From Candidatus Peribacteria bacterium (lineage in GTDB: Bacteria; Patescibacteriota; Gracilibacteria; Peribacterales; Peribacteraceae), in NCBI GenBank assembly GCA_018652265.1, contig JABICL010000030.1:6818-70817 (forward strand): a stretch of DNA of 64,000 bases, written 5' to 3'. A model generated the notes under the pieces. That model did not search any database. It was not told the origin of the DNA and worked only from the letters and a program-made list of their open reading frames with translations. Positions 5,908-63,734 of the stretch are shown here, piece by piece. Each line of letters begins with the position of its first letter. The stretch's first letter is position 1. The position numbers and the translations under genes are program-made.

Positions 5908-6450
5908 TCAAACCTGCATAATATCCTCCTCCTTTGACTTAGAAATTTCCTCTAATTCTTTATTTGCTTTATCTACTTCTTTTTGAAGAGCAGTTTCAAA
6001 ATCCCTGTGCTCATCTTCACTTCTACTTTCGTCTCTTTTCGAATTAGAATGAAATTCCTGACGCTGTTGTCTTACAGAAATCCTAGCTTCTTCTGCTAAT
6101 TCTTTAACTATCTTTACTATTTGCAAGCGCCTTTCTTCTGTCATTGGAGGCAAATTCAACCTAATTACAACACCATCATTAACAGGATTTACTCCTATGT
6201 TTGCATCACGAATAGCAGATTCTATCTGCTGCATTACGCCCTTATCCCATGGCTGTATAACTATAGTACGAGCATCCTGGATGCTAATACCTGCAACACC
6301 TTTTAGGGGCTGCTTTTGACCATATGCATCAATCATAATACCTTCTACTAAAGAAGCAGATGCTCTACCTGTCTGAAGCTTTGCATATTCCATCTTTAAA
6401 TGTTCTGTGGTTTTCTGCATGCCTTTCTTAAAAAGATTTATATCACTCAT
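5908..6450 (-). CDS. frr: Ribosome recycling factor
   Basis: 180 aa, full-length RRF-like sequence (..VNPVNDGVVIRLNLPPMTEERR..); TAAAAT 6 nt upstream of ATG. Confidence 0.95.
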   Translation of the reverse strand: MSDINLFKKGMQKTTEHLKMEYAKLQTGRASASLVEGIMIDAYGQKQPLKGVAGISIQDARTIVIQPWDKGVMQQIESAIRDANIGVNPVNDGVVIRLNLPPMTEERRLQIVKIVKELAEEARISVRQQRQEFHSNSKRDESRSEDEHRDFETALQKEVDKANKELEEISKSKEEDIMQV

Positions 6451-6487: not shown

Positions 6488-6548
6488 AGCGATCTGCGTT
6501 CAGCGTTCAGCGTTCCGCAGCAAAGCAAAAAACGGATCGCGGATCGCT
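6488..6548. repeat. Heptad-repeat palindromic element (empty form of the 27083-27515 cassette)
   Basis: gcgatct gcgttca gcgttca gcgttcc ... cggatcg cggatcgct; ends AGCGATCTGCG / CGCGGATCGCT are inverted; left end identical 11-mer to 27082-27092. Confidence 0.8.
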
Positions 6549-6551
6549 AAT

Positions 6552-7262
6552 CTATGGCATCACTTTTGTCCCTACCTCCTCACCTTTTACAACTTTCAAC
6601 AAATTCCCCTTTTTACCAAAATCGAAAATAATCAACTTCATTCCCTGATCACGACAAAGGCTAAGTGCTGCTTGATCCATTACCTGCAAATTCTTTTCTA
6701 TGGCATCTTGCAGAGTTATAGAATCATATTTCTTGGCATCTTTGTTCGTATTTGGATCTTTATCGTAGACTCCATCTACATTTGTAGCCTTCAGTATCAC
6801 ATCACAATTAAGCTCAAGAGCCCGAAGAGCTGCAGCTGAATCAGTAGTAAAATATGGATTTCCGGTTCCTCCAGCACATATTATTACTCTCCCCTTCTCT
6901 AGATGCCTAACTGCACGCCTCCTTAGATATGGTTCTGCAAGTTGTGGAACATCTACAGCAGAACAAACTCTAGTCATAGCACCATTTGATTCTAATGACG
7001 CCTGCAAACCTACTGCATTCATTATGGTTGCTAGCATTCCCATTGCGTCACTTGCTGTTCGTTCTATTCCAGCCTCCTTTTTGTCACGATATCTCCAAAT
7101 ATTTCCTCCGCCTATAGTTACAGCTACTTCAACGCCTTCTTTCATTACAGAAATAATCTCTTCGGAGATATTAGCAATAGCCTCATCATCCAATCCATAT
7201 TCATTGTTTCCAGAGAGAGCTTCTCCGGAAAGCTTTAGCATTATTCTTTTGTATTTAGACAT
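6552..7262 (-). CDS. pyrH: UMP kinase
   Basis: KRIMLKLSGEAL and GGGNIWRY motifs; ORF-track N-terminal 42 aa is read-through of repeat B; ATG 7262 has TGcTACAAT 7 nt upstream. Confidence 0.93.
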   Translation of the reverse strand: MSKYKRIMLKLSGEALSGNNEYGLDDEAIANISEEIISVMKEGVEVAVTIGGGNIWRYRDKKEAGIERTASDAMGMLATIMNAVGLQASLESNGAMTRVCSAVDVPQLAEPYLRRRAVRHLEKGRVIICAGGTGNPYFTTDSAAALRALELNCDVILKATNVDGVYDKDPNTNKDAKKYDSITLQDAIEKNLQVMDQAALSLCRDQGMKLIIFDFGKKGNLLKVVKGEEVGTKVMP

Positions 7263-7312
7263 TGGGGAGATTGTAGCATATATGGCTGTGCCACGTGGTA
7301 ACGCTTGAAACT

Positions 7313-7423
7313 GGTCCTTCGACTCTCCGCCTTCGGCGGATCGCTCAGGATCATTCGATTCCATTGCAAAAATAGGATGGTTTACCATGAGTGAGTATTT
7401 TGCGCAGCAAAATACGAATCGAA
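7313..7423 (-). repeat. tRNA-trailer repeat family B, copy 1
   Basis: About 110 nt directly after the CCA of tRNA-Arg; tRNA-proximal 75 nt about 90 percent identical to 21552-21626; contains hairpins GTATTTTGC/GCAAAATAC and ATGGT/ACCAT closed by CCATTCGATTC/GAATCGAATG. Confidence 0.85.
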
Positions 7424-12782: not shown

Positions 12783-14819
12783 GTGGGACTTGCAAACGAG
12801 ATAACAATCCGGCACTTAAAAACAACCGATACTTACATCGAGGCTCTAAATGAAATTGGAATAAGAAAAATAGAAGATCTGATTCTATATCTACCACGTG
12901 CGTATGAAGACCTTTCTCAAATGCAAAAACTTGCAACTGCGCAAGAAGGAGACAAAGTAACTATCAGAGGAACCGTAAGTAATTTAAAACTTGTAAGAAC
13001 AAGGACCGGAAAGAAATTGGTACAAGCAGATTTCACAGATACAGATGGAACTGTGTGCAAAGTAGTTTGGTTTAATCAGCCACATATAAAGAGAATGCTA
13101 TCAGATGGAGAAGACATCGTACTCACTGGAAAATTGGTTCGAACAGGTAAAAAATTCACATTACAAAGCCCTGTATTTGAATCAGGTAATCGTGAAATGC
13201 TTCTTCATTCTGGTCGTATAGTTCCTGTATATCCACAGCATGATGTAATAACTACTAGATGGCTGAGGGAGAAAATGGCACTTGTTAAAAATGTTATAAG
13301 TGATCTGCCGGAAACGTTACCAGAAGAGTTGATAAGTGGTCAGTGGTTAGTGGCTAGTGGTCAGTCGAAGGATCAGAATGAGGAAAGTAAGAAGCTTATG
13401 CCAAGAAATGAAGCAATAATGCAGCTGCACTTTCCTGAATCTGGTGAACTTTTGAAACAAGCACAAGACAGAATATCTTTTGAAGAGCTTTTTAATCTGC
13501 AACTAATTGCGCTTAAAAGAAAACAAGAATGGCAAGCAGAATCTCAGGATAGAATAAAAATTCCTATGAACGTAGAACTTATAAAATCATTTTTTGCTTC
13601 TCTTAAATTTACTCCTACAGATAGCCAAAGAATTGCAATCTATGAAATATTGAAAGATCTAGAAAAGCCAGTGCCTATGTCTAGGCTTCTGGAAGGAGAC
13701 GTAGGATCAGGTAAAACACTAGTTGCAACTGCAGTTATCGCAAATGTGCTCTATTACAACGGACAATGTGCTCTTATGGTTCCTACAGAAGTTCTCGCCA
13801 AGCAGCACGCTGCAAATATAACTAAACTTCTAAATAAAACATGTGTTGCTCTTCTTACTGGGTCTACCCCGAAGAAGGAGGCACAGGAAATAAAACTAGG
13901 CCTTGCTCGTGGGACTATAGACGTAGTTATAGGTACGCATTCACTTATACAGCCAGATGTGAAATTTAAGGATCTTAGATTCGCAGTAGTAGATGAACAG
14001 CATAGATTCGGTGTAGAGCAGAGAAATAAATTAAAAGCCAATGGCTCTCCACATTTCCTATCTATGACTGCTACTCCTATTCCTCGAACGCTAGCTCTCA
14101 CTGCATACGGAGATCATGATCTATCTGTACTGCTCGAAAAGCCTGGAAACAGAAAGTCTATTAAAACAAAAGTAGTTTCACCGAAAGATCGTCGCACAGT
14201 AGAATTATTTATAGATAAAGAAATAGAAGATGGCCGGCAGGCATATGTAATCTGCCCACTTATTACAGAAAGTGATGAACTCGCAGAAGTAAGAAATGTA
14301 ACTTCAGAAGCAAAAAGATTAAAAGAAATATTTCCACGTCGAAATATTGCACTACTTCACGGAAAGCTTACTCCAAAAGAGAAAGATGAAATCATGGGAG
14401 AATTCAAAGAGAAGAAATCAAACATTCTAGTTTCTACCTCTGTAATAGAAGTAGGAATAGATGTTCCAAATGCATCTATAATTCTTATAGAAGGATCTGA
14501 ACGCTTTGGCCTTTCCCAACTTCATCAATTACGTGGTCGTGTAGGACGAGGAGATCATCAGAGTCATTGTTTTTTGTGTACTACAGACGTCGCACAAGCA
14601 AGCTCACAGAGACTGAAGGCTATGGAAAAATTCACTGATGGGTTCTATTTGGCGGAAGTAGATCTAAAGCTAAGAGGTCCTGGCGAGTTGTATGGAACCC
14701 GCCAGAGCGGCATGCCGGAGATTCGAGCCTCCTCACTCACTAATCCTGAGCTGGTTGTAAGAGCGAGGAGGGCGGCGGAATTGTTTCTTGATAAGAAAGA
14801 GGCTCTAATAATCAATTAA
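12783..14819 (+). CDS. recG: ATP-dependent DNA helicase RecG
   Basis: Wedge domain plus SF2 helicase: GDVGSGKT, VVDEQHRFG, ..QLRGRVGRG; start set to GTG 12783 (TATTAT 7 nt upstream) instead of ORF-track 12735, which overlaps the divergent gene. Confidence 0.9.
   Translation: MGLANEITIRHLKTTDTYIEALNEIGIRKIEDLILYLPRAYEDLSQMQKLATAQEGDKVTIRGTVSNLKLVRTRTGKKLVQADFTDTDGTVCKVVWFNQPHIKRMLSDGEDIVLTGKLVRTGKKFTLQSPVFESGNREMLLHSGRIVPVYPQHDVITTRWLREKMALVKNVISDLPETLPEELISGQWLVASGQSKDQNEESKKLMPRNEAIMQLHFPESGELLKQAQDRISFEELFNLQLIALKRKQEWQAESQDRIKIPMNVELIKSFFASLKFTPTDSQRIAIYEILKDLEKPVPMSRLLEGDVGSGKTLVATAVIANVLYYNGQCALMVPTEVLAKQHAANITKLLNKTCVALLTGSTPKKEAQEIKLGLARGTIDVVIGTHSLIQPDVKFKDLRFAVVDEQHRFGVEQRNKLKANGSPHFLSMTATPIPRTLALTAYGDHDLSVLLEKPGNRKSIKTKVVSPKDRRTVELFIDKEIEDGRQAYVICPLITESDELAEVRNVTSEAKRLKEIFPRRNIALLHGKLTPKEKDEIMGEFKEKKSNILVSTSVIEVGIDVPNASIILIEGSERFGLSQLHQLRGRVGRGDHQSHCFLCTTDVAQASSQRLKAMEKFTDGFYLAEVDLKLRGPGELYGTRQSGMPEIRASSLTNPELVVRARRAAELFLDKKEALIIN
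13335..13369 (+). repeat. Heptad block AGTGGNN x4 (+1) in-frame inside recG
   Basis: agtggtc agtggtt agtggct agtggtc agtcgaa encoding SGQWLVASGQS. Confidence 0.85.
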
Positions 14820-16257: not shown

Positions 16258-16390
16258 AAAATTTTCAATTCATAATTTTCAATTTTCATTCAATTTTCAA
16301 GATCTAATTCTCAATTTTGCAGAATTCGCATGTTTGAAAATTGGCTCATTGATCCTTGAATGAAAATTAGAAATTTAAAATTGTAAATTA
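16258..16390. repeat. AATTTTC-type heptad block and inverted GAAAATT block in the ruvC / transferase intergenic region
   Basis: aattttc aattcat aattttc aattttc attcaat tttcaag (16258-16318) faced by ttgaaaatt ... tgaaaatta gaaattt aaaattg (16334-16390). Confidence 0.7.
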
Positions 16391-16447: not shown

Positions 16448-17506
16448 ATGTCTGAAGCTCTGACATTTCTACTTTATTCAACAACAATCTGCCTCCTGCT
16501 TCACATGCTCGCATGTGCAGTATTTCCAAATTTCAAACTACTAGATAAGCCAGAAAAATATGGACTCAAAAGAAAGCCTCTTCCATATCCAACGGGCATA
16601 GCATCCGTAATTGCATTTATTTTGATGTTCACCGTTGCTCAGACTCCCCTATCTTTTCAAGCAAAAGGACTATTGCTAGGAATTGGTCTACTCACATTCA
16701 CTTCGATAATAGATGATATAAAAAGTCTTCCAGCCTGGGCAAGGCTACTTATTCAAGCACTAATCGCATTTATAATATTTGCAGCAGGCACTCGCATTTA
16801 TACAATCACAAATCCACTTGGAGGAATAATAAAACTAGATACTATAGACATTCATCCAGCACTACTCACTACTCACTACTCACTACTCACTAAGATAGGA
16901 CCTCTTCCATTCGCAAGTGGTCTTTTCACAATAGCTTGGCTTCTTCTCACTACTAATTCGTTCAACTGGCTAGATGGCATACCAGGACAAGTAAGCATTC
17001 TCTCTTTTATAGGAGGAATAACACTTGGAATACTTGCGCTAAGCTCTAGAGTAGATCAACCAGAGATTGCTATAATTTCTTTTATAGTCGCAGGAATCGC
17101 ACTTGGTAGTGCTGTTTTCGATCTACCTCCAAACAAAACTGTAATGGGAGATACTGGAGCAATGTTTTTTGGACTCATGCTTGGAACAATAAGTATTTAT
17201 GCAGGAGGAAAAGTAGCAACTGCTTTGCTTGTAATGGGAGTGCCACTTATCGATGCAGCACTAGTAACAACTAAAAGGATTATAAAAGGTAGATCTCCAC
17301 TAAAAGGAGGAAGAGATCATCTTCATCATATGCTTATAGACAATAGGCAATGGACTGAATCTCAAGTAATACTTCTTACAGCAGCACTTGGAACTTCATT
17401 TGGAGTTTCTGCATTATTTATGAGCACATTAGGAAAATTTGCCGCCATCGTATTACTTGGAATTGTAATGCTGCTTATCACTAGATATGCATCTAAGAAA
17501 AACTAA
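16448..17506 (+). CDS. Polyprenyl-phosphate HexNAc-1-phosphate transferase (MraY/WecA family)
   Basis: 352 aa, about 10 TM; NWLDGIPGQ and MGDTGAMFFG motifs; TACAAT 6 nt upstream of ATG. Confidence 0.85.
   Translation: MSEALTFLLYSTTICLLLHMLACAVFPNFKLLDKPEKYGLKRKPLPYPTGIASVIAFILMFTVAQTPLSFQAKGLLLGIGLLTFTSIIDDIKSLPAWARLLIQALIAFIIFAAGTRIYTITNPLGGIIKLDTIDIHPALLTTHYSLLTKIGPLPFASGLFTIAWLLLTTNSFNWLDGIPGQVSILSFIGGITLGILALSSRVDQPEIAIISFIVAGIALGSAVFDLPPNKTVMGDTGAMFFGLMLGTISIYAGGKVATALLVMGVPLIDAALVTTKRIIKGRSPLKGGRDHLHHMLIDNRQWTESQVILLTAALGTSFGVSALFMSTLGKFAAIVLLGIVMLLITRYASKKN
16860..16894 (+). repeat. Perfect heptad tract (CACTACT)x4 + cactaag inside the transferase gene
   Basis: Read directly; encodes LLTTHYSLLTK. 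Confidence 0.95.
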
Positions 17507-19140
17507 CCTCCTTCCTCTTTCGAATCAGACCTAGCAGACAATATCCTCATATTTGTCATAGGTTCGCCATCTGCAGTAAAGGCTCCTCTTACAGCAGGAA
17601 TCACTGTCTTTATGCCACGTGGAATCATTCTTATAAATGCACGTCCTCTACTATCAAATTGCTCCTGAGTAATTACAGAAGGAGAGAAATCCGCTTCGCC
17701 AAATGAAGCCTGCAAATGAATTTCTCCTTCAAATTTTACATTCTTTATAAAGTTTCCATCTTCATCTCTTGCATAAAGAACTATCTCTTCCCAATCTTTA
17801 TCGAAATCACCATCGTGAAGAATCGTAATACTAGAAACAACGTGTGAAACCTTTGGCATTTGCATATCGGTTTCGGCAGTAGAGCGTGATTCTGCAATTT
17901 CTGATTCATCTTCCCCTGCCCCGCGAAGTTCGTCCGCCACGGCGGACGACGAAGTGGGGTCTACAACTTCTATAACCTCCTTGTCTTCTATTGCCTCTTC
18001 CTCCGGCTCTATAAACAACTCCGAATCTACATTCGAATCCACCACCTCCACAACTTCGCTCACAATTACCTGCTCTTTATTACTTCTTCTTCTCGCAATT
18101 CTTGCGGCAACATTTTCGCGTAATTTTTCTATAAATGTCTTTCCAGAAAGAACTACAGAAGCAGTTATTTCTTCTGAAGATAACTCTTCTTGTTTTTCTG
18201 ATTTTACAATTGCCATACCATTCTCCATTCCCCAATCTCTATAATTTTCGATGTAAGCCAAAGGATTAATTGTATATTGCTCTGCCCTATCTTTTCCTAA
18301 TCCATTATCTACTGCCTCTATAAAACTAAGCCCTGCTTCAGTAGCTTCTGAAGTTGTAAATGGCCAATAGGGATGGAAAGGAGCCTCTCTATCTATCTGG
18401 AAATGTAGATGTGGTGCAGTTGCAAATCCAGTCTGTCCAGTAAGAGCAATTTGCTGTCCTTTTTGAACAATTTCACCAATGCTCACATACATTTTTCCTA
18501 AGTGAGCATAATTCGAATATAGAACTTCTGTCTTATCTGGATCATCTACGTTTGGAACACCTGGATGTTTTATAACCACGGTATTACCAAAACCATATCC
18601 TCTTTCTACAACTCTTGTTACTACTCCATTCATTACAGATACAACTGGAGTTCCTTTGGGAGTAAGAAGATCTGCAGCAGGATGACTACCACAATTAAGT
18701 CCACCAGAATCATAATCACCATTGTAATCAACAGATAAAATACTTCTATTGTGACCTGCATCATCTCCACATCCACGTGCAGGGAGATAAGAAGGAAGTG
18801 ATACAAGTAATTCTTCCGGAACATCTGTGAAATCAAAATTTCGATTTCCACCTCCCCATCTACCAGGATCAGGCACTACAGGAAGTGGTGACACCGCTCC
18901 AGTAAATACTATTTCTGCCTCTTGTCCCCAAACAGATTTCCAGAATGCTCCCCATCCATGCTGTCCAACCATGTTTCCTACCAGAAATGCAGCACAGGAA
19001 AAAAGGGCCAACCAAAAAGACCATCTCTTGCTAAGGAATCCCTTCATAGACTCCGTAGGTTGCCTGTATAGTGCAGAAACTGAATAGTGATGAGCGTCAA
19101 ACATTTTTGTTTTTGTTACTATATAATATACCATAATCAT
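17503..19140 (-). CDS. M23 (LytM-type) metallopeptidase with N-terminal anchor and long C-terminal extension
   Basis: GYGFGNTVVIKH ... YAHLG ... APHLHFQI motifs; start uncertain (M1, M13 or M32). Confidence 0.85.
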   Translation of the reverse strand: MIMVYYIVTKTKMFDAHHYSVSALYRQPTESMKGFLSKRWSFWLALFSCAAFLVGNMVGQHGWGAFWKSVWGQEAEIVFTGAVSPLPVVPDPGRWGGGNRNFDFTDVPEELLVSLPSYLPARGCGDDAGHNRSILSVDYNGDYDSGGLNCGSHPAADLLTPKGTPVVSVMNGVVTRVVERGYGFGNTVVIKHPGVPNVDDPDKTEVLYSNYAHLGKMYVSIGEIVQKGQQIALTGQTGFATAPHLHFQIDREAPFHPYWPFTTSEATEAGLSFIEAVDNGLGKDRAEQYTINPLAYIENYRDWGMENGMAIVKSEKQEELSSEEITASVVLSGKTFIEKLRENVAARIARRRSNKEQVIVSEVVEVVDSNVDSELFIEPEEEAIEDKEVIEVVDPTSSSAVADELRGAGEDESEIAESRSTAETDMQMPKVSHVVSSITILHDGDFDKDWEEIVLYARDEDGNFIKNVKFEGEIHLQASFGEADFSPSVITQEQFDSRGRAFIRMIPRGIKTVIPAVRGAFTADGEPMTNMRILSARSDSKEEGG

Positions 19141-23725: not shown

Positions 23726-25336
23726 GTGCATATGGAAGCAAAGACCCCATTTGAAGGAAGTAAATTAAACCGGTATCATCCGTTAGACATGTCATTTAGT
23801 ATTCGACACTTACATCAAGAGGATAAGAAGAGCGCTAAAAATATATTCAAAAACGTTAAAAAAACATTTCCATGGAAAATGGTTTTTGGATTTGCTTTTA
23901 CAGTAGGTAAGCCACTTTTTGAACTTGGCCTCAGATTGCATGAAAGACAACAAAAAAGAGCACGCTTCAAAAGAATGATATCTATAGGAATATCTATAGT
24001 GGTAGTAATAGCTATAACACTCATAACATTTTCTCTTATAGTAAAAATTGGCGGGGCTTCTTTTGGAACGTTTACAAAAATGTCTGCCATGCCAACAGGA
24101 TCAAATGATAGTGGCATTACGAATATGCTTGTTCTAGGACAAGGAGATGAAAAAGGAATAGATCTCACAGACTCAATAATGGTTGTAAGTATCGATCCAG
24201 AAAAAACCGAAAGTATAATGGCTCTTTCTCTTCCTCGTGATCTTTACTTCTTGCATACAGACTCTATGGAGACAGAGAAAGGCAAGCTTAATCTTCTCTG
24301 GAGAGATAACAGAATACTTATAGGGCAAAATCAGGGATTGGATAAAGAGGAGGCATCTATGCTTTCTATGAGACAGCTCGCAGACGAGATAGGGAATGCT
24401 TTAAACATAGAAATACATCACACAGTAAAAATAGACTTCGAAGCATTTGAAAAGGTAGTAGATACAATAGGAGGCTTAGATGTAGAGGTCGCAGAAGAGA
24501 TTCATGACGAAGAATATCCAGATGAGAATTATGGATATCAAATATTTCATCTAGATGCAGGGCAGCAACACATAGATGGAGCAACAGCCCTTAAATATGT
24601 GCGTACCAGATCAACAACAAGTGATTTTGATAGATCTAGAAGACAACAACAAGTTATGAGTGCAGCAATTGCTCGTGCAAAAGAATCAGGCCTTCTAAAA
24701 AAACCACACAAACTACTAGAGCTGTATTCCATATTATCTGCGCACATAGAAACAGATTTAAAAACCAGACAGATGGTATATCTTGCAAATTTAGCAAGAG
24801 ACTTAAACAGAGACAATTTTGTCACGTTGCAGCTTAATAATGTAAATGGACTATACGGAGATCAATTATTCAAAGGAGGACTTCTTTATGCTCCACCTAG
24901 AAATTTATTCGAAGGAGATTCAGTATTATTACCAGTTTCTATTCCTGAATTTCCTGTTACCTGGAAACAAGTTCAATTTCTTTCTAAATTATTTTTCACA
25001 GAAAGAAATCCTCATATAGCATCACCATCATTTACCGTTTTAAATGGAGGTGCTCCAGAAAAATCTGCAGGAAAAGTTGCTAGAGAATTTAAGAAATTTG
25101 GATTCGATTTGGCAGTTGTATCAAATACCCCTCGAAAAGAGGAAGTGACAGAATCCTTCATAAGTGCAAATAATGCCGATTTTGACCCTCAAATAGTGGA
25201 ATATTTCTCTAATTTAATTGGTATTCCAGCCAAAGAATTACCAGATAGCATTCGCGAAAAAGCCGAAGGAGACGTTACAATAGTACTTGGTAAAGATTTT
25301 GAATTTAATTACTTCCAGAATTTCATTCTTCCTTAA
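23726..25336 (+). CDS. LytR-CpsA-Psr (LCP) family protein with C-terminal LytR_C-like domain
   Basis: N-terminal TM; DSIMVVSIDP..LSLPRDLY..ALKYVRTR motifs; start GTG 23726 or ATG 23732. Confidence 0.85.
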   Translation: MHMEAKTPFEGSKLNRYHPLDMSFSIRHLHQEDKKSAKNIFKNVKKTFPWKMVFGFAFTVGKPLFELGLRLHERQQKRARFKRMISIGISIVVVIAITLITFSLIVKIGGASFGTFTKMSAMPTGSNDSGITNMLVLGQGDEKGIDLTDSIMVVSIDPEKTESIMALSLPRDLYFLHTDSMETEKGKLNLLWRDNRILIGQNQGLDKEEASMLSMRQLADEIGNALNIEIHHTVKIDFEAFEKVVDTIGGLDVEVAEEIHDEEYPDENYGYQIFHLDAGQQHIDGATALKYVRTRSTTSDFDRSRRQQQVMSAAIARAKESGLLKKPHKLLELYSILSAHIETDLKTRQMVYLANLARDLNRDNFVTLQLNNVNGLYGDQLFKGGLLYAPPRNLFEGDSVLLPVSIPEFPVTWKQVQFLSKLFFTERNPHIASPSFTVLNGGAPEKSAGKVAREFKKFGFDLAVVSNTPRKEEVTESFISANNADFDPQIVEYFSNLIGIPAKELPDSIREKAEGDVTIVLGKDFEFNYFQNFILP

Positions 25337-25363
25337 TTGTTAATTATTCATTGTTAATTAATT
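25336..25363. repeat. Heptad block ATTRTTN x4 ending 1 nt before an ATG
   Basis: attgtta attattc attgtta attaatt, then t-ATG (25365). Confidence 0.8.
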
Positions 25364-25364
25364 T

Positions 25365-26402
25365 ATGACTCCTAGAGAAATAATTGCCGAATCATGGCTA
25401 ATTACTACAAAGCACAAAAACAAGCTGCTTTTCTGGGGAGCTCTTGATGCATTTATACTAATGGTATCAGCAATGATATTTGTAATGTATCAAAGTTATG
25501 TACTTGGTGCATTCTTTCGAGATGGAGAGACTGCATCATGGAAAACAGTAATAGAAGTAATATCAACACCACTACAAGGCAATACTGCAATAATGATCAC
25601 CTTGATAGTGCTAGTAGCAATATATTTGATTTTATGGACTGTGATTCCTAGATTTGCAACTGCAGCGCTTATAGGGTTATCTGCAAAAATTCACTGTGGA
25701 GACGAGCCAAAAGGAGGTGTGGTTCTTGCATTCTTTAACTTCTTTGCACTACTTGAGCTCGCAGCAGCTCTTGGGCTTATAGGAGCCAAAATGCTCTTTT
25801 CTCTGTGGTCTTTGGCAGTTAGATACATGTCTGCAGGTGATGGAAGTGGAATATTCACCTTAAGCGCAATTCTTATAATTCTATGGTGTGTTTCATTTAT
25901 ATTTCATTTTCTCTTCACATTTGCAGAAGAGGCAGTGGTTATTAGAAAGTTTGGAGTATTTAAAGCATTGGGACAGAGTTTTAAATTGGTTCTTTCTTAT
26001 CTAACAAAAGTAATACTTATTGCGGTACTTCTACTCATAATAATTCTTAGGATAGTAGTAAATGCCATAGTGATATTTCTAATACCATCCCTGGTAATGG
26101 GGCTAGGATTTCTATTTATGAGATTTATGCCAGAGGTAGTAAGTTTTGGGATAAGCGGTGGAATAGGACTCCTAATAGTAATTGTCGCAAGCTACTTCTT
26201 GGGATACGTAACAGTATTTAAACATACAGTCTGGACCATTACTTACCTAGAGCTATCCAAAGAAAAAGAATTAGATGTTATAGAGACAGAAGAAATTACA
26301 ACAAAGAATAAAAGGGAAACAGAAGAGATAGAAGATAAAAAAGAAAAAGAAGAAACAAAGGAGTCAGAAGATCCAGAAACAGAGCTAGAAACTAGCAATT
26401 AG
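25365..26402 (+). CDS. Multi-pass membrane protein with acidic C-terminal tail
   Basis: 345 aa, 7-8 hydrophobic segments, E/K-rich tail; no named family. Confidence 0.6.
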   Translation: MTPREIIAESWLITTKHKNKLLFWGALDAFILMVSAMIFVMYQSYVLGAFFRDGETASWKTVIEVISTPLQGNTAIMITLIVLVAIYLILWTVIPRFATAALIGLSAKIHCGDEPKGGVVLAFFNFFALLELAAALGLIGAKMLFSLWSLAVRYMSAGDGSGIFTLSAILIILWCVSFIFHFLFTFAEEAVVIRKFGVFKALGQSFKLVLSYLTKVILIAVLLLIIILRIVVNAIVIFLIPSLVMGLGFLFMRFMPEVVSFGISGGIGLLIVIVASYFLGYVTVFKHTVWTITYLELSKEKELDVIETEEITTKNKRETEEIEDKKEKEETKESEDPETELETSN

Positions 26403-26423: not shown

Positions 26424-26462
26424 TTGACGGTGTACAACCGTGCAGGTATACTCTCGTATACC
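26424..26462 (+). promoter_or_regulatory. lexA promoter with overlapping palindrome (candidate LexA operator)
   Basis: TTGACG (26424-26429) -17 nt- TATACT (26447-26452); perfect palindrome GGTATAC-tctc-GTATACC 26445-26462 ends at the ATG. Confidence 0.6.
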
Positions 26463-27080
26463 ATGTCATCTACAGCTTCACTAACGGATCACCAGAGAAC
26501 GGTGCTTTCATATATAAAAGAATTTCAATCAAAGAGAGGTTATTCCCCTTCTCTCTCTGATCTTGCAATTGCATTTGGAGTAAGAAGTAAAAATGCAGTA
26601 GCAAAAGTTGTTAACGTTCTTGCAAGAGAAGGATTCCTAGAAAAGGATCCAAAAGGAAGAATTAAAATACTTGATAGTGGAAAAAAGGAATCTTCTGTAG
26701 AACCAATGGTACTTCCACTGTTTGGACCTATTGCAGCTGGCTTTGCATCTCCTGCAGAAGAGCAGGCAGAAGAGCAAGTTAAGCTTATGGACATGATGGT
26801 TCGTGATCCATCCCGCACTTTTCTGCTACGCGTAAAAGGAGATAGCATGATCGACGCCGGAATTATGGAAGGAGATTTGGTAGTAGTAGAAAGAGGCAAA
26901 GAACCACGCGTAGGAGATATAGTTGTAGGAATTTTAGACGGCGAATTCACTCTTAAGCGCCTCGCAAAAGATAAAGGTAAGTACTATCTACATGCCGAAA
27001 ACTCGGAATATCCGGATTTATACGCACTAGAGGAGCTTAAGGTTGCTGGAGTAGTTAGAAGTGTCGTTAGAATGCTTTGA
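26463..27080 (+). CDS. lexA: LexA repressor
   Basis: wHTH N-terminus, cleavage site PIAAGF, GDSM (Ser) and LKRL (Lys) dyad; start set to ATG 26463. Confidence 0.9.
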   Translation: MSSTASLTDHQRTVLSYIKEFQSKRGYSPSLSDLAIAFGVRSKNAVAKVVNVLAREGFLEKDPKGRIKILDSGKKESSVEPMVLPLFGPIAAGFASPAEEQAEEQVKLMDMMVRDPSRTFLLRVKGDSMIDAGIMEGDLVVVERGKEPRVGDIVVGILDGEFTLKRLAKDKGKYYLHAENSEYPDLYALEELKVAGVVRSVVRML

Positions 27081-27082
27081 GA

Positions 27083-27110
27083 GCGATCTGCGATCCGCGG
27101 TCTGCGATCC
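27083..27110. repeat. Heptad block GCGATCY x4, left flank of the four-helix-bundle gene
   Basis: gcgatct gcgatcc gcggtct gcgatcc, starts 3 nt after the lexA stop. Confidence 0.85.
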
Positions 27111-27129
27111 GATTTCCATAGAATTTACC

Positions 27130-27516
27130 ATGATGAAATTATCATTCAAGGATCTAAGAGTTTGGACTAAGGGAATAGAACTTGTAGACATTGTCTACAG
27201 AATTACAGAGGGTTTTCCTAAAAATGAATTGTATGGTCTCACTTCTCAATCAAGGCGTTCTGCAGTATCTATACCATCTAATATTGCCGAAGGTAGTCAA
27301 AGAACATCTGACAAAGAATTTGGAAATTACATTTTAATTGCCAAGGGCTCTCTTGCTGAACTACATACACAAATGATAATTGCAAATAGGCGCGGCTGGC
27401 TGAATTCCTCAAAAGAGAAAGATTTATTCACAATAATAGATGATTTGAGCAAAATGTTATATTCACTACGCAAAAAACTGAACACGGAGCGCGGAGCGCG
27501 GATCACGGAACGCTAG
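27130..27516 (+). CDS. Four-helix-bundle protein (23S rRNA intervening-sequence protein family)
   Basis: KDLRVW, SIPSNIAEG, AKGSLAELHTQ motifs; TAGAAT 5 nt upstream of ATG 27130. Confidence 0.8.
   Translation: MMKLSFKDLRVWTKGIELVDIVYRITEGFPKNELYGLTSQSRRSAVSIPSNIAEGSQRTSDKEFGNYILIAKGSLAELHTQMIIANRRGWLNSSKEKDLFTIIDDLSKMLYSLRKKLNTERGARITER
27481..27515. repeat. Heptad block, right flank of the four-helix-bundle gene
   Basis: aacacgg agcgcgg agcgcgg atcacgg aacgcta; CGCGGATC complementary to GATCCGCG in the left block; includes the stop codon. Confidence 0.8.
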
Positions 27517-27530
27517 TATATAATGTATTC

Positions 27531-29726
27531 GTGACAAAAGAAGATCCAATTAAAAATCTTAGAGCAAGAATATCCAGGGCACCAAAAAAGCCTGGTATTT
27601 ATCGTTGGTTAAATTCCAGTGATAATATTTTGTATGTAGGCAAAGCAAAAGACTTGCGAGCACGCATGAAGAGTTATGTGCAAAAAAATCCAGACAAATC
27701 ACTTGGGCCTTGGAAGCTTGCACTACTTAAACATATAGAAGATGTAGATTGGACTGTTACGGATAATGAGCTTGAGGCTTTAATCTTGGAAACGAATCTA
27801 ATAAAAGAACATCATCCAAAATATAACGTCCTCATGAAGGATGATAAAAATTATGTGTATGTGATGATTACCAGAGATGAGTTTCCTCATATAGAAATAG
27901 TTAGGAATATGCAGGAAATAAAAAAGGGGGCAAAAGAAGCCGTATATTTTGGCCCTTTTACGAGTTTAACTCGTATAAAACAAGCTCTGGAACTACTAGA
28001 TGAAATCTTTGGATACCGCGCCTGTAAACGGTCTGTTGAGCAATTAAACAAAGATTCCAACGTAAAATGTAAACAATGTACAGAGTCTCAGATAGGTAAA
28101 TGTAATGGGCTTTGTATGGGAAAGGTTTCAAAAAATGAATACTTCGAAAGAATAGAAGAAGTAAAAAGATTCTTCAGAGGAAATCATGAGCATATGATAA
28201 AAAAATTAAAAGAAATGATAGAAACAGCAGCAAAAAATATGAAATTTGAACGTGCGGCAAGATGTAGAGATACACTTGAATTTATAAAATCTCTATCTGA
28301 GCAACAAATTGTTTCTGGGACATCAGGAGAAGATACGGATATATTTGGTGTAGCTATTCAAGCAGATAAAGCTCAGATAGTACTGCTTCAGGAACGTAAT
28401 GGAAGAATAATCAATGAACTCAGTTTTTCTGTAAAAGGAACCGCAGATTCTTCTTTTGAAGTATTATCTCAGTTCTTGCCTCAATACTACAGAGAATCCC
28501 CTACTATCCCCAATACAATAATTGTAAGTAAAGACTTCGAGGAAACCTCATTATTTGAAAAATGGATAAATAAAGAACTTAGCTCTGACAAAAAAATCTC
28601 GATAAAAATTCCAGAAAGAGGCAAAAAATCTAAGCTTCTCAAAATGGCAGAAGAAAATGCAAAAGAGAAAGCAGCAAAAGAACTTGCAAGCTGGGAATCT
28701 GCAGCACACAAAATAGAAACTGCACTAAATGAGCTTAAAGATGCACTTAAATTAAAAGAAAAACCAAAACGAATAGAATGTTATGACATATCACACATGG
28801 GAGGCACGGAAACTGTTGGTAGTATGGTTGTTTTTGTAAATGGTAAATCAAAAAACGATCAATACAGATCTTTTACTATAAAAACAATGAAAGATGGGGA
28901 AATAGATGATTATAAAGCGATACAAGAAGTTTTTACTCGTAGATTAAGACATTTAGCTAAGGGAATTAAAGAGGAAGAAACTGCCTGGGCAAAGAACAAA
29001 ATTTCTTTTTCTAAAGCCAAAAAGGATGAGATAGAAAATATAAAAGAATTTATGGAACAGGAAGAAGAACACCTAAGTCCAGAAGATTTGAATCACGAAG
29101 ATTTCATTGTCGGAAAAATTGGAGATAAAATCATATCTTTCGGCAGACTTCTAAAACACTCTCCAAATGAAATAGAAATTAAGTCAGCTTGGGTTCATCC
29201 AAGTCACAGAAATAAAGGTCTAGGAACTTTCATGGTTAGAAAACTACTGCAAAAAGCTAACAAAATGAAATTTAAGAAAGTTTATATAAGAATATTTGTT
29301 GAAATGGAGGAATTCTATTCGTCTATGGGATTTGTAAGAGTAAAAACACTTCCTCCAGTTATAGGTAAAAAAGTGGCAGAAATAAGAAAAAATCATCCAG
29401 ACATTAATGGCACAACAATGGTATACATTTTCTCTGAAAATAAAGAAGATTCTTCACTTGGAACAAAGCCTGATCTAATAGTTATAGATGGAGGAAAAGG
29501 GCAATTGGGGGTAGGAGTAAAAGCTCTAAAGGCAGCAAAACTCAAGATTCCAATAATATCGCTCGCTAAACGAGAAGAAGAGGTTTTTGTGCCTAGAGTG
29601 GCAAAACCAATTCAATTTCCAAAAGACTCCGAATCTCTATTTATACTTATGAGACTTAGAGATGAAGCGCATAGATTTGCGAATAGACATAGGGAGAAGA
29701 AAATGAAGAACTCAGTTTTGGGATAG
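27531..29726 (+). CDS. uvrC: Excinuclease ABC subunit C with an inserted GNAT acetyltransferase-like domain; no C-terminal HhH2
   Basis: GIY-YIG (GIYRW..LYVGKAKDLRARM), Cys cluster, UVR helix pair, endonuclease domain (YDISHMGG .. VIDGGKGQL .. DEAHRFA); about 170 aa between RRLRHL and KPDLIVIDGG contain VHPSHRNKGLGTFMVRKLL; TATAAT 6 nt upstream of GTG. Confidence 0.88.
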   Translation: MTKEDPIKNLRARISRAPKKPGIYRWLNSSDNILYVGKAKDLRARMKSYVQKNPDKSLGPWKLALLKHIEDVDWTVTDNELEALILETNLIKEHHPKYNVLMKDDKNYVYVMITRDEFPHIEIVRNMQEIKKGAKEAVYFGPFTSLTRIKQALELLDEIFGYRACKRSVEQLNKDSNVKCKQCTESQIGKCNGLCMGKVSKNEYFERIEEVKRFFRGNHEHMIKKLKEMIETAAKNMKFERAARCRDTLEFIKSLSEQQIVSGTSGEDTDIFGVAIQADKAQIVLLQERNGRIINELSFSVKGTADSSFEVLSQFLPQYYRESPTIPNTIIVSKDFEETSLFEKWINKELSSDKKISIKIPERGKKSKLLKMAEENAKEKAAKELASWESAAHKIETALNELKDALKLKEKPKRIECYDISHMGGTETVGSMVVFVNGKSKNDQYRSFTIKTMKDGEIDDYKAIQEVFTRRLRHLAKGIKEEETAWAKNKISFSKAKKDEIENIKEFMEQEEEHLSPEDLNHEDFIVGKIGDKIISFGRLLKHSPNEIEIKSAWVHPSHRNKGLGTFMVRKLLQKANKMKFKKVYIRIFVEMEEFYSSMGFVRVKTLPPVIGKKVAEIRKNHPDINGTTMVYIFSENKEDSSLGTKPDLIVIDGGKGQLGVGVKALKAAKLKIPIISLAKREEEVFVPRVAKPIQFPKDSESLFILMRLRDEAHRFANRHREKKMKNSVLG

Positions 29727-46473: not shown

Positions 46474-47004
46474 TTAAGATTCTTTATTTTTTGCAACTTC
46501 GTTTACTGCTCTAGCAAAAGCACCAAGTGGACTTCCACACATGCTTGCAAAGTTTCCAAGAGGAGCACGAAGCATGGCTGCAAACTTCGAAAGTAATTCT
46601 TCTTTGCTAAGCATCTTCGCAAACTCTACTGCATCCTCTTTTGAAAGAAGCTTGCCATCTACAACTCCGCCAACGATTTCTACTGCATCATTTTTCTTGC
46701 CAAATTCAAATGCAACTTTGGCTCCACTTATTTCATCTTCGAAACTAAAAACAAAAGCAATTGGCTCATTGCCAAAAGCCTCATCAGAAACTTCTGGATA
46801 ACCCTCCTCTTTAGCTGCAATATTAAATAATGTTTTCTTGGCTACTTTCATTCTCGCATTCTTCTCCAACATCTTTCCTCTTAGATCATCAATATCAGAA
46901 ACACTAAGCCCACGATATTTCATGAAAGCGAGTGACTTTGTCTTCTTGATTGCATCTCTTATGTCTGCAACCTGTGCCTTTTTCTGATCTTTTGTAAGTG
47001 CCAT
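46474..47004 (-). CDS. rplJ: 50S ribosomal protein L10
   Basis: 176 aa, L10-like throughout; upstream of rplL. Confidence 0.92.
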
Positions 47005-47011
47005 ATTTACG

Positions 47012-47046
47012 AGTGGGTAGTGGTTAGTGGGTAGTGGTTAGTCACC
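47012..47046. repeat. Heptad block AGTGGNT x4 (+1), 8 nt upstream of the rplJ ATG
   Basis: agtgggt agtggtt agtgggt agtggtt agtcacc. Confidence 0.85.
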
Positions 47047-62171: not shown

Positions 62172-63734
62172 TCACTCCTCCATGTATCTAAATATTTCCT
62201 TGAATCTCAAGGTTTCACTTAGGCGAAGCCCTGTCCATTTACCTAGGAAGATGTTTACAACAATCGTAAGAAATACAGTTTCTGGATAAGCAATTATAAG
62301 AGATTTCAGAACCGCCCACTGCACTATTACAAAACATACTAGTGCAACAATAACCGTCTCTCCTACTGCCATAAGAGCGTTTCTAAGTCCCATCTCTGCT
62401 TTTACGCTCATAAACTCTTCAGAAAGAGTGGCCATTATAAGAAGTATAAAAATAGTATCTGGAGCCAATGTAATTCCAAAAGAAGCAGCAACCGCAAGTA
62501 CCACTAGAAGCACAAGACTAATAACCGTAAGAATAGTTGCGATCTTTGGAAAATAAAGAAGTCTATACCTCTTCATAAATGCACGAGTTAGATATCCCGC
62601 AAAAAGAATCACAGCAAGAAGCACAAGTCCTATCTCCCATCCAAGTGCAACAAGAGATAATGTAATTACAGCAGGCGTATACAAACCAAATGTAGTCACT
62701 CCTACCACTTGTTTCAGGAAAGTAATAATCGTAAGAATAAGAGGAAGCATAAGTAGAAGAATTATCATCTCGCTACTTACTCCTTTTGTAACCATATAAT
62801 TTACTAGAGTAGAAAGAATATTCCATGGCCTTATGGCAAAAGTTGCTTCGTCTACTATAGAGAAATCTATATCTCTTTTTTCTATCTCAGAAACAAACTC
62901 ATGCACATCCCCTACTTCTATAAGAGGATTTATCGCTTCTTTTCTGGTTATAACTATCTTCTCTGGATCGAGCACAGAGAAAGGCCCCTGAATTACACGC
63001 GAAAGCTGTTGAAGCCCTCCATCGGTTATTAGAACTATTGTTTGTGATCCTATTAGAGAAAGTGTTTCTTCATCTTGCTGCAAAGCTCTAGACAATGCGT
63101 TCATCGCAGTCGCTCCATCTGCCCAGAGAATAATTGCTTCAGCTCCTAGAAATCTATCTGTATTCTCTGCAATCATTTTCGTCATTACATCTTCGGTTCC
63201 AAGCGGAATCGTAAGCGCTTCGGCATGCATTATGTCTACCAATACTCCTTTTTCCTCTCCATTTGATTGATGCAGTGCTAGCTTTTCTTTCTCTACATTT
63301 GGTCCAGCAACTAAAATCAACTTCCTCTTATATACAGTTATATCCTGAGTAACTTCTGCCTCTCTTTTTGTATTGTTTAATAAATCACTAACCTGAAGAG
63401 TAATTTTATATTTACCAGGCTCATTTAATGTAAGTAGTGCTTCTTCGGATGTACTTATAGCCTGTCCATCTCTTAACCACTTATACGATACTGTATCTGG
63501 ATCTGCCGTAGAGTGAGATGCATCTAGAAGAATCTTCTTTCCTTGGCTTACATTCGATGGTCCTGTGATTACTGCTCTAAGTTCACGTGGGGCATCGGAT
63601 ACTTCCGGAACTTGGGCCAGTGCTATATACGGGACAAGTAAAATAGTGACAAGTGACAAGTGACAAGTGACAAGTAACTTTCTGCCCACTGCCCACTGCC
63701 CACTGCCCACTCGTCCAAATTTCAAATAAATCAT
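62172..63734 (-). CDS. PKD domain + unknown alpha/beta domain + 7TM domain of the kind usually fused to an inactive transglutaminase
   Basis: PKD-like (YKWLRDG..GKYKITLQVSD); C-terminal seven helices beginning LKQVVGVTTFGLYTPAV and ending GKWTGLRLSETLRF; N-terminal signal region encoded by heptad blocks. Confidence 0.6.
   Translation of the reverse strand: MIYLKFGRVGSGQWAVGRKLLVTCHLSLVTILLVPYIALAQVPEVSDAPRELRAVITGPSNVSQGKKILLDASHSTADPDTVSYKWLRDGQAISTSEEALLTLNEPGKYKITLQVSDLLNNTKREAEVTQDITVYKRKLILVAGPNVEKEKLALHQSNGEEKGVLVDIMHAEALTIPLGTEDVMTKMIAENTDRFLGAEAIILWADGATAMNALSRALQQDEETLSLIGSQTIVLITDGGLQQLSRVIQGPFSVLDPEKIVITRKEAINPLIEVGDVHEFVSEIEKRDIDFSIVDEATFAIRPWNILSTLVNYMVTKGVSSEMIILLLMLPLILTIITFLKQVVGVTTFGLYTPAVITLSLVALGWEIGLVLLAVILFAGYLTRAFMKRYRLLYFPKIATILTVISLVLLVVLAVAASFGITLAPDTIFILLIMATLSEEFMSVKAEMGLRNALMAVGETVIVALVCFVIVQWAVLKSLIIAYPETVFLTIVVNIFLGKWTGLRLSETLRFKEIFRYMEE
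63645..63710. repeat. Convergent pair of heptad blocks: AGTGACA x4 (plus sense) and AGTGGGC x4 (minus sense)
   Basis: agtgaca x4 at 63645-63672; tgcccac x4 at 63683-63710; together encode GSGQWAVGRKLLVTCHLSLVT. Confidence 0.9.

Follow-up and report, generated by a model that had tools for sequence, protein, structure and literature searches.

In the 23S rRNA genes of Coxiella burnetii and Leptospira, intervening sequences of the S23p type hold an open reading frame (ORF) of one protein family inside a stem loop closed by inverted repeats of about 28 bp. For Coxiella, a 28-bp stem, RNase III cleavage mapped there, and heptameric repeats at the 5' end have been described (PMC4990558). ORFs of the same type, 23S_rRNA_IVP, are also found in rRNA insertions of the candidate phyla radiation (CPR) (PMC11270868). 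This family, PF05635, has the motif GxxRxxxSxxxNxxE (PMC3936711), and its genes were previously noticed wedged into cas operons. Here a stretch of 64,000 nucleotides from a Candidatus Peribacteria bacterium (assembly GCA_018652265.1, contig JABICL010000030.1, positions 6,818 to 70,817), referred to as the window, was analysed; the subject of this study is a PF05635 gene that lies in it between lexA and uvrC, within a 436-bp palindromic gene cassette (about 27081-27516) of the type known from the 23S rRNA intervening sequences. The family of four-helix-bundle proteins is widely distributed and includes solved structures, yet to our knowledge no function has been assigned to it except for Avd.

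Several other repeat systems resemble this locus in part. Heptamer repeats have been known for decades as the cyanobacterial short tandemly repeated repetitive (STRR) sequences, the TAACTGA repeats and the promoter-proximal repeats of Nostoc, and we know of no mechanism or binding partner assigned to any of them. Avd binds nucleic acid and reverse transcriptase, and Correia elements in transcripts are substrates of RNase III. Doublets of repetitive extragenic palindromic (REP) sequences, the REPINs, reportedly form a system with REP-associated tyrosine transposases (RAYTs), as Nunvar in 2010 and Bertels & Rainey in 2011 are said to have described. The TAACTGA heptamers of Beggiatoaceae, Cyanobacteria, and Bacteroidetes occur in tandem sets, mostly intergenic and near start codons (PMC4679880); that paper, by MacGregor, contains neither the term 'four helix' nor '23S' and makes no link to a gene family. 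In a preprint on the Nostoc heptamers the interacting partner is called unidentified (bioRxiv 10.1101/2022.06.06.494920). Full-text literature searches found no paper that links the PF05635 family to heptamer repeats or describes packaging in inverted heptad arrays for the family as a whole.

The cassette lies between the lexA stop codon (TGA, 27078-27080) and the start of uvrC, and the coordinates of its parts are given in Table 1. Its 5' arm reads AGCGATCT GCGATCC GCGGTCT GCGATCC G, with GCGATCT as the first heptad, and its 3' arm reads CGGAGCG CGGAGCG CGGATCA CGGAACG CT. Each arm comprises about 4.3 heptads, both were called as period 7 by Tandem Repeats Finder (TRF; 3.9 and 4.1 copies), and 26 of the 30 positions pair. 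When the whole 447-nt stretch is folded, the arm-arm pairing is present in the minimum free energy (MFE) structure as well as in the centroid structure. The arms alone reach -47.7 kcal/mol compared with -27.2 +/- 3.3 for shuffled sequences (z = -6.2), and none of 200 shuffles is as stable. Therefore, the original prediction, which had been made from the letters of the window and which placed complementary heptad blocks around the gene, holds up against shuffled controls. One of its two block cores, CGCGGATC, lies exactly where it was placed (27497-27504), and the other, GATCCGCG, lies at 27092-27099, one base off the earlier figure of 27093-27100. The gene was described as bracketed by these blocks; both arms are indeed present, but the 3' block falls within the coding sequence and not beyond it. 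The last 10 codons of the gene are the 3' arm, the final base of which is the T of the TAG stop codon (27514-27516).

In S23p-type intervening sequences an ORF is surrounded by inverted repeats of about 20-30 bp, and here the stem has 26 pairs over 30 nt. Unlike the S23p elements, the cassette does not lie in an rRNA gene but between protein-coding genes of an apparent SOS operon, and both of its arms are explicit arrays of four to five heptad units. Five tRNAs and no rRNA were found in the window by the Rfam scan, which gave no match at the cassette or at the 6488-6548 element described below. With lexA and uvrC as neighbours, no rRNA in the window, and the fold described above, the stem-plus-ORF layout appears here outside rRNA, as had been proposed.

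The protein is a clear member of the 23S-intervening-sequence family, in agreement with the earlier assignment: it scores 121.8 bits against PF05635 (Pfam cut-off 33.8; E 1.8e-35) and 116.2 bits against TIGR02436 (cut-off 24). No domain besides PF05635 was found in it by profile searches, including any HUH/Y1 transposase of the IS200/IS605-like type, and none of the PADLOC defence-protein families matched at E <= 0.01. The AlphaFold2 model (predicted local distance difference test score, pLDDT, 92.3) consists of four helices, and the tail encoded by the arm is its sole low-confidence part. The four-helix-bundle fold is shared with the best Foldseek match, 2GSC (XCC0516; template modelling (TM) scores 0.86/0.94, 45% identity), and with 2RLD (BT_0352; TM 0.76/0.89). 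The next match is Avd of the Bordetella phage (4DWL; TM 0.73/0.86, 10% identity), which was also matched in retroelement ribonucleoprotein structures. Like Avd, the protein belongs to a fold that is pentameric in solved relatives, as 4DWL, 2GSC, and 2RLD contain five chains each.

In an alignment of 71 family proteins including that of the window, R43, S47, N51, and E54 are invariant and G36 is nearly so, which reproduces the family motif GxxRxxxSxxxNxxE. Altogether 15 columns are invariant among these proteins of many phyla; therefore, the protein is under purifying selection, and in this the cassette differs from the Coxiella S23p element, which is reported to be decaying. Orthologues with more than 58% identity were not found among 61 relatives, 185,579 species genomes, or metagenome contigs.

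The genome examined (1.07 Mb in 48 contigs, Peribacteria-like, 100% complete) holds nine PF05635 copies, two of which are cut by contig ends. All seven complete copies carry an upstream heptad array, and the unit differs from copy to copy (AGTGATT, TTAGGGC, GGAAAAG, AATTAAC, AATTTTC, GCGATCT, and GGAAATC). The reverse complement of the upstream array lies at or over the 3' end in six of the seven; at the C34:14027 copy no convincing 3' partner array was seen, as judged by eye and unscored. The two truncated copies both have an upstream array of the unit TTAGGTA. Arrays with an inverted partner within 1.5 kb (score >= 14) number 31 compared with 4 in a reversed-sequence control, and most of these pairs are gene-less hairpins with loops of 12-90 nt. 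The expected further filled and empty copies are thus present in the genome, and such gene-less partners, together with in-frame copies, are a further difference from the S23p elements.

The gene-less element at 6488-6548 lies between frr (5908-6450, minus strand) and pyrH (6552-7388, minus strand), and consists of a 5' array (6488-6515), a loop motif AGCAAAGCA (6519-6527), and a 3' array (6533-6548). The terminal 11-mers that drew attention to it were confirmed: AGCGATCTGCG (6488-6498) and CGCGGATCGCT (6538-6548) pair over 11 bp, one of which is T:G (z = -2.7), and the arms belong to the family of the lexA cassette. It had been regarded as the same element without cargo. The common arm family and the lack of a gene agree with this, but the element has a conserved loop of its own, AGCAAAGCAAGAACAAACA, which is found at 6519-6537 and at no fewer than 10 other sites, with arms of either the GCGATC or the AGTGGTT type. 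Since this loop is common to at least 11 gene-less hairpins, the element is a relative of the cassette and not merely an emptied copy. A second conserved loop, AAAGGAAATCTTCCAT, accompanies arms of the AATKAAY type. No gene remnants were seen in the gene-less hairpins, whose loops carry distinct conserved sequences.

Gene-less hairpins with arms of the same family exist for three gene-bearing cassettes, those of the GCGATC, AATTTTC, and AATKAAY types. Five AATTTTC-type hairpins have 34-39 nt in common with the arms of the cassette at C1:41291-41578 (88-97% identity), and the AATKAAY-type hairpins have arms in common with the C46 cassette. The genome also has further arrays and hairpins with arms of the AGTG type. 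Apart from the four-helix-bundle gene, no cargo was found between inverted arms in this genome; each candidate was an ordinary gene flanked on both sides by a complete gene-less hairpin, such as an NAD-dependent epimerase/dehydratase-like gene (named from its sequence only) at C30:63084-64150.

The reading that we prefer, with a probability of roughly 55%, is a composite one: the cassette would be a DNA-level palindromic element similar to the intervening sequences, its protein would act on heptad arrays in a layout like that of REPINs and RAYTs, and cutting by RNase III would be a side effect. As with REPIN/RAYT, each repeat family has its own gene, on the two sides of which the repeat lies in inverted orientation; many gene-less doublets with the same arms (three arm families here) are dispersed between genes; and the repeats are abundant only where the gene is present. 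In contrast to REPIN/RAYT, the cassette encodes a 128-aa four-helix bundle with no known catalytic motif instead of an HUH/Y1 transposase, and its arms are tandem heptads of variable unit instead of a fixed palindrome.

One possible scheme is that the cassette is a selfish or semi-domesticated palindromic element, the arms of which would be maintained as a DNA-level inverted duplication and not via selection on an RNA helix. The protein may be the trans-acting partner of the heptad arrays, with a pentamer sitting on the module of four to five units; it would bind the arrays and would be needed for their spread or upkeep. Gene-bearing cassettes could then be regarded as 'master' copies, and gene-less hairpins, single arrays, and in-frame inserts as their dependants, in a relation like that of RAYT genes to REPINs but without recognisable transposase chemistry. 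In RNA that reads through from the lexA promoter, the arms would pair as a stem of about 26 bp, which RNase III might cut by analogy with the Coxiella intervening sequence. Such a cut would free the cassette message and part lexA from uvrC, as a consequence of the design and not as a target of selection. To this extent a processable RNA stem, as originally suggested, is plausible.

A wider and more tentative proposal, for which we would put the odds somewhat below even, is that bacterial heptanucleotide repeats in general have PF05635 proteins as their so far missing trans-acting partner. Each pentamer would recognise an array of about 30 nt made of its own heptad, and would sustain or spread hairpins, single arrays, and in-frame inserts. 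The family would thereby be an analogue of RAYT/REPIN on a non-transposase fold, ranging from the CPR to Cyanobacteria, Bacteroidota, and some archaea, and the S23p elements in rRNA might have arisen from it.

To see how general the arms are, 186 family loci were compared, which came from this genome, from 29 genera of the same class, from 80 named genomes (Bacteroidota, Acidobacteriota, Planctomycetota, Firmicutes, Proteobacteria, Cyanobacteria, Patescibacteria, and Methanophagales), and from 80 metagenome contigs. An inverted repeat between the upstream 160 nt and the stop-codon region (score >= 24) is present in 150 of the 186, compared with 6 and 27 in two controls. Across phyla, such a layout is the rule for genes of this family. 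In the first 79 good cassettes, the self-identity of the arm is 0.60 at lag 7 and about 0.26 at other lags, and 68 of them have their best lag at 7 or 14. The median arm is 30 nt long, the 5' arm stops short of the start codon by 25 nt (median), and the 3' arm starts inside the ORF in 47%. The 5' arm contains 33% G and 10% C in these cassettes, and its GC skew is positive in 114 and negative in 8 of 122 cassettes (p = 4e-25), so that the G-rich arm comes first; the same polarity holds in the gene-less hairpins of this genome, 11 to 0. Because the layout is an inverted repeat with fixed polarity, the G-rich strand points inward, 5' to 3', at either end of the element. The unit consensus contains AGT in 65 of 128 cassettes.

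Pairing was counted over 4,130 columns from 128 cassettes, of which 3,593 are Watson-Crick, 104 are G:U, 117 are A:C, and 316 are other mismatches. In selected RNA helices G:U is tolerated far better than A:C, but an RNA-type wobble excess is absent from the arms on either strand (104 vs 117, p = 0.42). Where bases of the 5' arm depart from the heptad consensus, 70% are still Watson-Crick paired; therefore, the arms are mirrored unit by unit and are not two independent arrays of one family. From the lack of wobble excess, the mirrored units, the fixed polarity, and the fixed length, we infer that the arms are a DNA-level inverted duplication with a defined module size, and not an RNA helix kept by compensatory selection. 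Another candidate role, that of universal three-frame translational stops, is only partly true of the arms. They contain more stop codons than composition-matched shuffles, especially in the inward direction, in which all three frames are closed in 37% of the arms compared with 12% of the shuffles; the window's own arms close no frame.

The same arms bear on the alternative of a purely RNA-level processing element, in which the stem for RNase III would be under selection and the gene would be a passenger; we consider this unlikely. Read-through RNA that contains both arms is likely here. The promoter scan placed the lexA promoter at 26424-26452 (TTGACG-17-TATACT), and a perfect palindrome, GTATAC-N4-GTATAC (26446-26461), overlaps its -10 box and is a likely LexA operator for this lineage; no second exact copy of it occurs in the window. 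The scan of the window for promoters and terminators found no terminator between lexA, the cassette, and uvrC. Since no terminator intervenes and the LexA-like palindrome occurs only at the lexA promoter, the three genes probably form one SOS-controlled transcript, possibly with internal starts that have only a -10 box. The arms pair in both the MFE and the centroid fold, the cleavage by RNase III in the Coxiella stem was shown by experiment (PMC4990558), and orthologous lexA-linked cassettes, described below, keep the complementarity of their arms despite unrelated units.

Against RNA-level selection, however, stand the counts of G:U and A:C given above, and the polarity and length do not change with the strand and recur in unpaired single arrays. 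Conservation of the protein across phyla is strong, which does not fit a decaying passenger, and the RNA-level alternative leaves it unexplained that heptad density tracks the copy number of the gene. In addition, in a subset of cassettes including that of the window, a -10-like box between the 5' arm and the ATG would give a message of the gene's own without the 5' arm. The TAGAAT box had been noted as the gene's own -10 box 5 nt from the ATG; the hexamer is there, and its place agrees with a weak peak that TANNNT shows across the family, 5-8 nt ahead of the start codon (30 of 128 cassettes compared with about 8 expected, with approximate start codons of the 186 family genes that blur the spacing), but the promoter scan gave no -35 element to go with it. 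The box is perhaps an internal, leaderless promoter. In this uvrC resembles the cassette gene, as in both a -10-like hexamer precedes the start codon by 5-6 nt and a -35 match is missing, the hexamer of uvrC being TATAAT at 27519-27524, 6 nt 5' of the GTG.

Heptad arrays are also found in this genome apart from the cassettes. TRF reported 230 arrays of period 7 compared with 69, 64, and 42 for periods 8, 10, and 11, and a stringent scan gave 53 compared with 0-2 for periods 5, 6, 8, 10, and 11. About 60% of the period-7 arrays are intergenic or at gene edges by a simple longest-ORF heuristic for gene calls, although intergenic DNA makes up only 12% of the genome. The STRR, TAACTGA, and Nostoc heptamers likewise consist of 7-nt units repeated in tandem, 2-6 per set, which lie mostly between genes and are over-represented in period. 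About half of the units here have the AGT anchor, which is also found in AGTTATC (the reverse complement of TAACTGA) and in AGTCCCC (a rotation of STRR1 that is our own). In contrast to those heptamer systems, the arrays here flank one particular gene as inverted pairs and have the same units as its cassette. The Rickettsia palindromic elements (RPE) and the Correia/nemis elements of Neisseria are similar in being short hairpin repeats between genes that survive in frame in housekeeping genes; they have a fixed consensus and no associated gene, whereas here the unit varies freely and the period, length, and polarity are fixed.

As many as 48 clean arrays are located well inside long ORFs, where in-frame translation turns each into an insert of about 10 residues. 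Arrays also differ between contigs C14 and C20, which are 90.6% identical and both contain carA (C14:8430-9623 and C20:11661-12881). At one site in carA an array of GCGGACC x 4 is present in C14 only, with a net gain of 21 nt, and at a second site the two copies have arrays of the AGCGATC and the AATGAAC type, respectively. Therefore, arrays are gained or replaced on a short time scale without the gene in cis. As the two contigs are closely similar yet differ in arrays, the bin holds two related strains or a large duplication. C14 and C20 both break at one identical point within a four-helix-bundle gene.

The lexA junction was compared in related genera. In 24 of the 29 that could be judged, a dinB-like polymerase gene, recognised by its MxxHxDxDxFFAS start, follows lexA within about 500 nt. 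The junction is empty in six genera, with a tight spacer of 4-18 nt, and filled in others: a four-helix-bundle cassette of 405-478 nt lies at exactly this junction in four genera in addition to the window, clear heptad hairpins occur at three junctions (L045, L063, and L068), looser-period purine-rich hairpins at three more, and unrelated GC-rich palindromes at several. The lexA-linked proteins of three genera are mutual best matches with 53-58% identity; the arm units of these three are unrelated, and each arm pair is nonetheless complementary. Against the lexA-linked proteins the window protein ranks only 24th-28th of 34, and its closest relatives are the paralogue on C4 and G028:C18, both at 56% identity. 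Because it falls outside the orthologous lexA-linked group, the junction has been occupied independently at least twice. At L053 (G031:C36) the 5' arm has the heptad AGTATTA, which runs on without a break from the last codons of lexA, AAGTATTAA, and it looks as if this array was seeded from, or homogenised with, the flanking end of lexA.

These patterns are relevant to a host regulatory system, in which the proteins would be sequence-specific regulators, the arrays would be operators or translational control sites, and each paralogue would autoregulate and control a cognate regulon. Arrays do adjoin stop and start codons, the -35 positions of both -10-like boxes (27119-27124 and 27519-27524), that is, of the gene and of uvrC, fall within the heptad arms, and arm families are cognate within genomes. 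Furthermore, the heptamer repeats of Nostoc alter reporter expression (bioRxiv 10.1101/2022.06.06.494920), and a role in translation was proposed for the TAACTGA repeats (PMC4679880). A regulon, however, would hardly include the 48 arrays translated within housekeeping ORFs, nor would its arrays differ in presence and family between two 90.6%-identical contigs, nor would a junction be tight, hairpin-bearing, or cassette-bearing according to genus, with unrelated units. The orientation of single arrays relative to genes is only weakly biased, 13 vs 7. Overall, the array patterns fit selfish insertions better than a conserved regulon, and regulation as the primary role seems quite improbable.

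Gene and repeat were also compared across 61 genomes of the class. The counts taken were those of PF05635 genes and of hits to two four-unit heptad patterns with an anchor, namely AGT at period 7 and the reverse of this pattern, a control that is sensitive to heptads as well; the proxy covers these two anchor types only. Copy number and hits are correlated (Spearman rho 0.69, p = 9e-10, statistics that ignore kinship). Median hits are 1 (maximum 17) in the 16 genomes that lack the gene and 38 in the 45 that carry it (Mann-Whitney p = 2e-6). The contrast persists inside the family to which the window belongs, with counts of 0, 0, 2, 12, and 17 in genomes lacking the gene and a median of 30.5 in the others (p = 0.007). 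In other genomes, an array located within 1.5 kb of a cassette agrees in unit with that cassette in 45% of cases, and with other cassettes in 2% (p = 2e-14). In this genome, 98 of 152 clean non-cassette arrays are within one mismatch of one of its eight cassette units, whereas eight foreign cassette units give 39 +/- 16 (maximum 79 in 300 draws). The similarity of proteins goes with that of units (Mantel p = 0.002): a unit is shared by 40% of protein pairs at 60-80% identity and by 2-3% of pairs below 50%. The clade with the unit AGTGAC[AG] includes Chthoniobacterales and Gemmataceae genomes (L075 and L087).

The same data make it very improbable that the arrays are independent of the gene, as slippage microsatellites or a footprint of break repair in which the genes merely insert or survive. 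Landing in proportion to abundance would be expected to bring abundant arrays into cassettes, and the four abundant superfamilies are indeed among the cassette arm types; four of the eight arm families, however, are rare, with 0-5 other arrays, which insertion of this kind does not predict. The length of clean arrays is narrow, with 38 of 53 at 29-32 nt and a median of 30 nt (4.3 units), which suggests a fixed module size rather than microsatellite slippage. Independence is likewise at odds with the difference in median hits between genomes without and with the gene, and with the sharing of arm units across phyla within protein clades.

Lastly, the remnant of a diversity-generating retroelement, in which the protein would be the Avd-type cofactor of a repeat-writing reverse transcriptase, is suggested by the fold shared with Avd but is scarcely credible, as the genome has no RVT_1 match, the adjacent reverse transcriptase and the template and variable repeats of Avd systems are absent, only 14 of 61 related genomes have one and the most heptad-rich, G002, has none, the family profile misses Avd in the PDB at E <= 1, and the sequence identity is only 10%. 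A retroelement origin of the repeats is contradicted by the absence of RVT_1.

Several points weigh against the reading that we prefer. Apart from one pair on the two 90.6%-identical contigs, there are no near-duplicate gene-bearing copies in the genome; therefore, recent movement of the gene-bearing form has no support from the copies here. About 20% of the family loci have no detectable arms, and no nuclease or recombinase motif is recognisable in the protein. Four genomes with two to three gene copies give no hit to the two anchored patterns, and four without the gene still have 9-17 hits, which would also be compatible with independent arrays. The correlation at the genome level ignores kinship, and that between protein and unit may be explained equally well by co-inheritance as by specific recognition. 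Finally, the absence of wobble would be compatible with an RNA role if the arms were too young or were homogenised by DNA conversion.

The present findings add to the described systems the absence of wobble, the polarity, the array length of about 30 nt, the correlation of gene and heptads, the repeated occupation of the lexA junction, and the absence of reverse transcriptase. A single genome of 1.07 Mb unites cassettes, gene-less hairpins with the same arms, and in-frame copies, and at the genome level copy number is linked to repeat density. For annotation, cassettes split operons, arm-encoded tails lengthen ORFs, and enzymes acquire 10-residue inserts; for assembly, contigs break at cassette elements.

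Table 1. Coordinates of the cassette, its neighbours, and related repeat elements in the window.
Feature	Position	Strand	Evidence or remark
Gene-less hairpin between pyrH and frr, arm family of the lexA cassette	6488..6548		sequence, TRF, folding
Array of AGTGGTC type, read as SGQWLVASGQS	13335..13365	+	recG linker between wedge and helicase domains
Gene-less hairpin with AATTTTC-type arms	16260..16389		one of the five AATTTTC-type copies; 34-39 nt with 87-94% identity to the arms of the C1:41291-41578 cassette
Array of CACTACT x 4.7, read as ALLTTHYSLLTK	16860..16892	+	in a Glycos_transf_4 (MraY/WecA-type) gene
lexA, upstream neighbour	26463..27080	+	Pfam Peptidase_S24 and LexA_DNA_bind
5' arm, four heptads and 2 nt	27082..27111	+	sequence, TRF, folding; starts 2 nt past the lexA stop
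TAGAAT, -10-like box	27119..27124	+	sequence; 5 nt 5' of the ATG at 27130
Four-helix-bundle protein gene, 128 aa, PF05635/TIGR02436	27130..27516	+	profiles, model
3' arm, imperfect reverse complement of the 5' arm	27485..27514	+	sequence, TRF, folding
uvrC, downstream neighbour, with inserted GNAT domain	27531..29726	+	Pfam, sequence; GTG start

In addition to the two in-frame arrays in Table 1, another lies at 18218-18239 in the window, and the genes hit by such arrays include recG, Glycos_transf_4, and an M23 peptidase. The uvrC gene encodes a 731-aa fusion, in which a GNAT domain (approximately residues 497-605) lies inside the RNase H-like endonuclease domain and splits its Pfam match in two. 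At 63633-63711 two arrays stand back to back, GACAAGT x 5-6 followed by CTGCCCA x 4.3; they are not mutually complementary, and both lie at the 5' end of an ORF on the minus strand (62172-63734). Two single arrays, at 47012-47042 and 25333-25359, end 5-7 nt before the start codons of ORFs 46474-47004 (minus strand) and 25365-26402 (plus strand), at the position expected of a ribosome-binding site, and the TAACTGA repeats of Beggiatoaceae are similarly placed.

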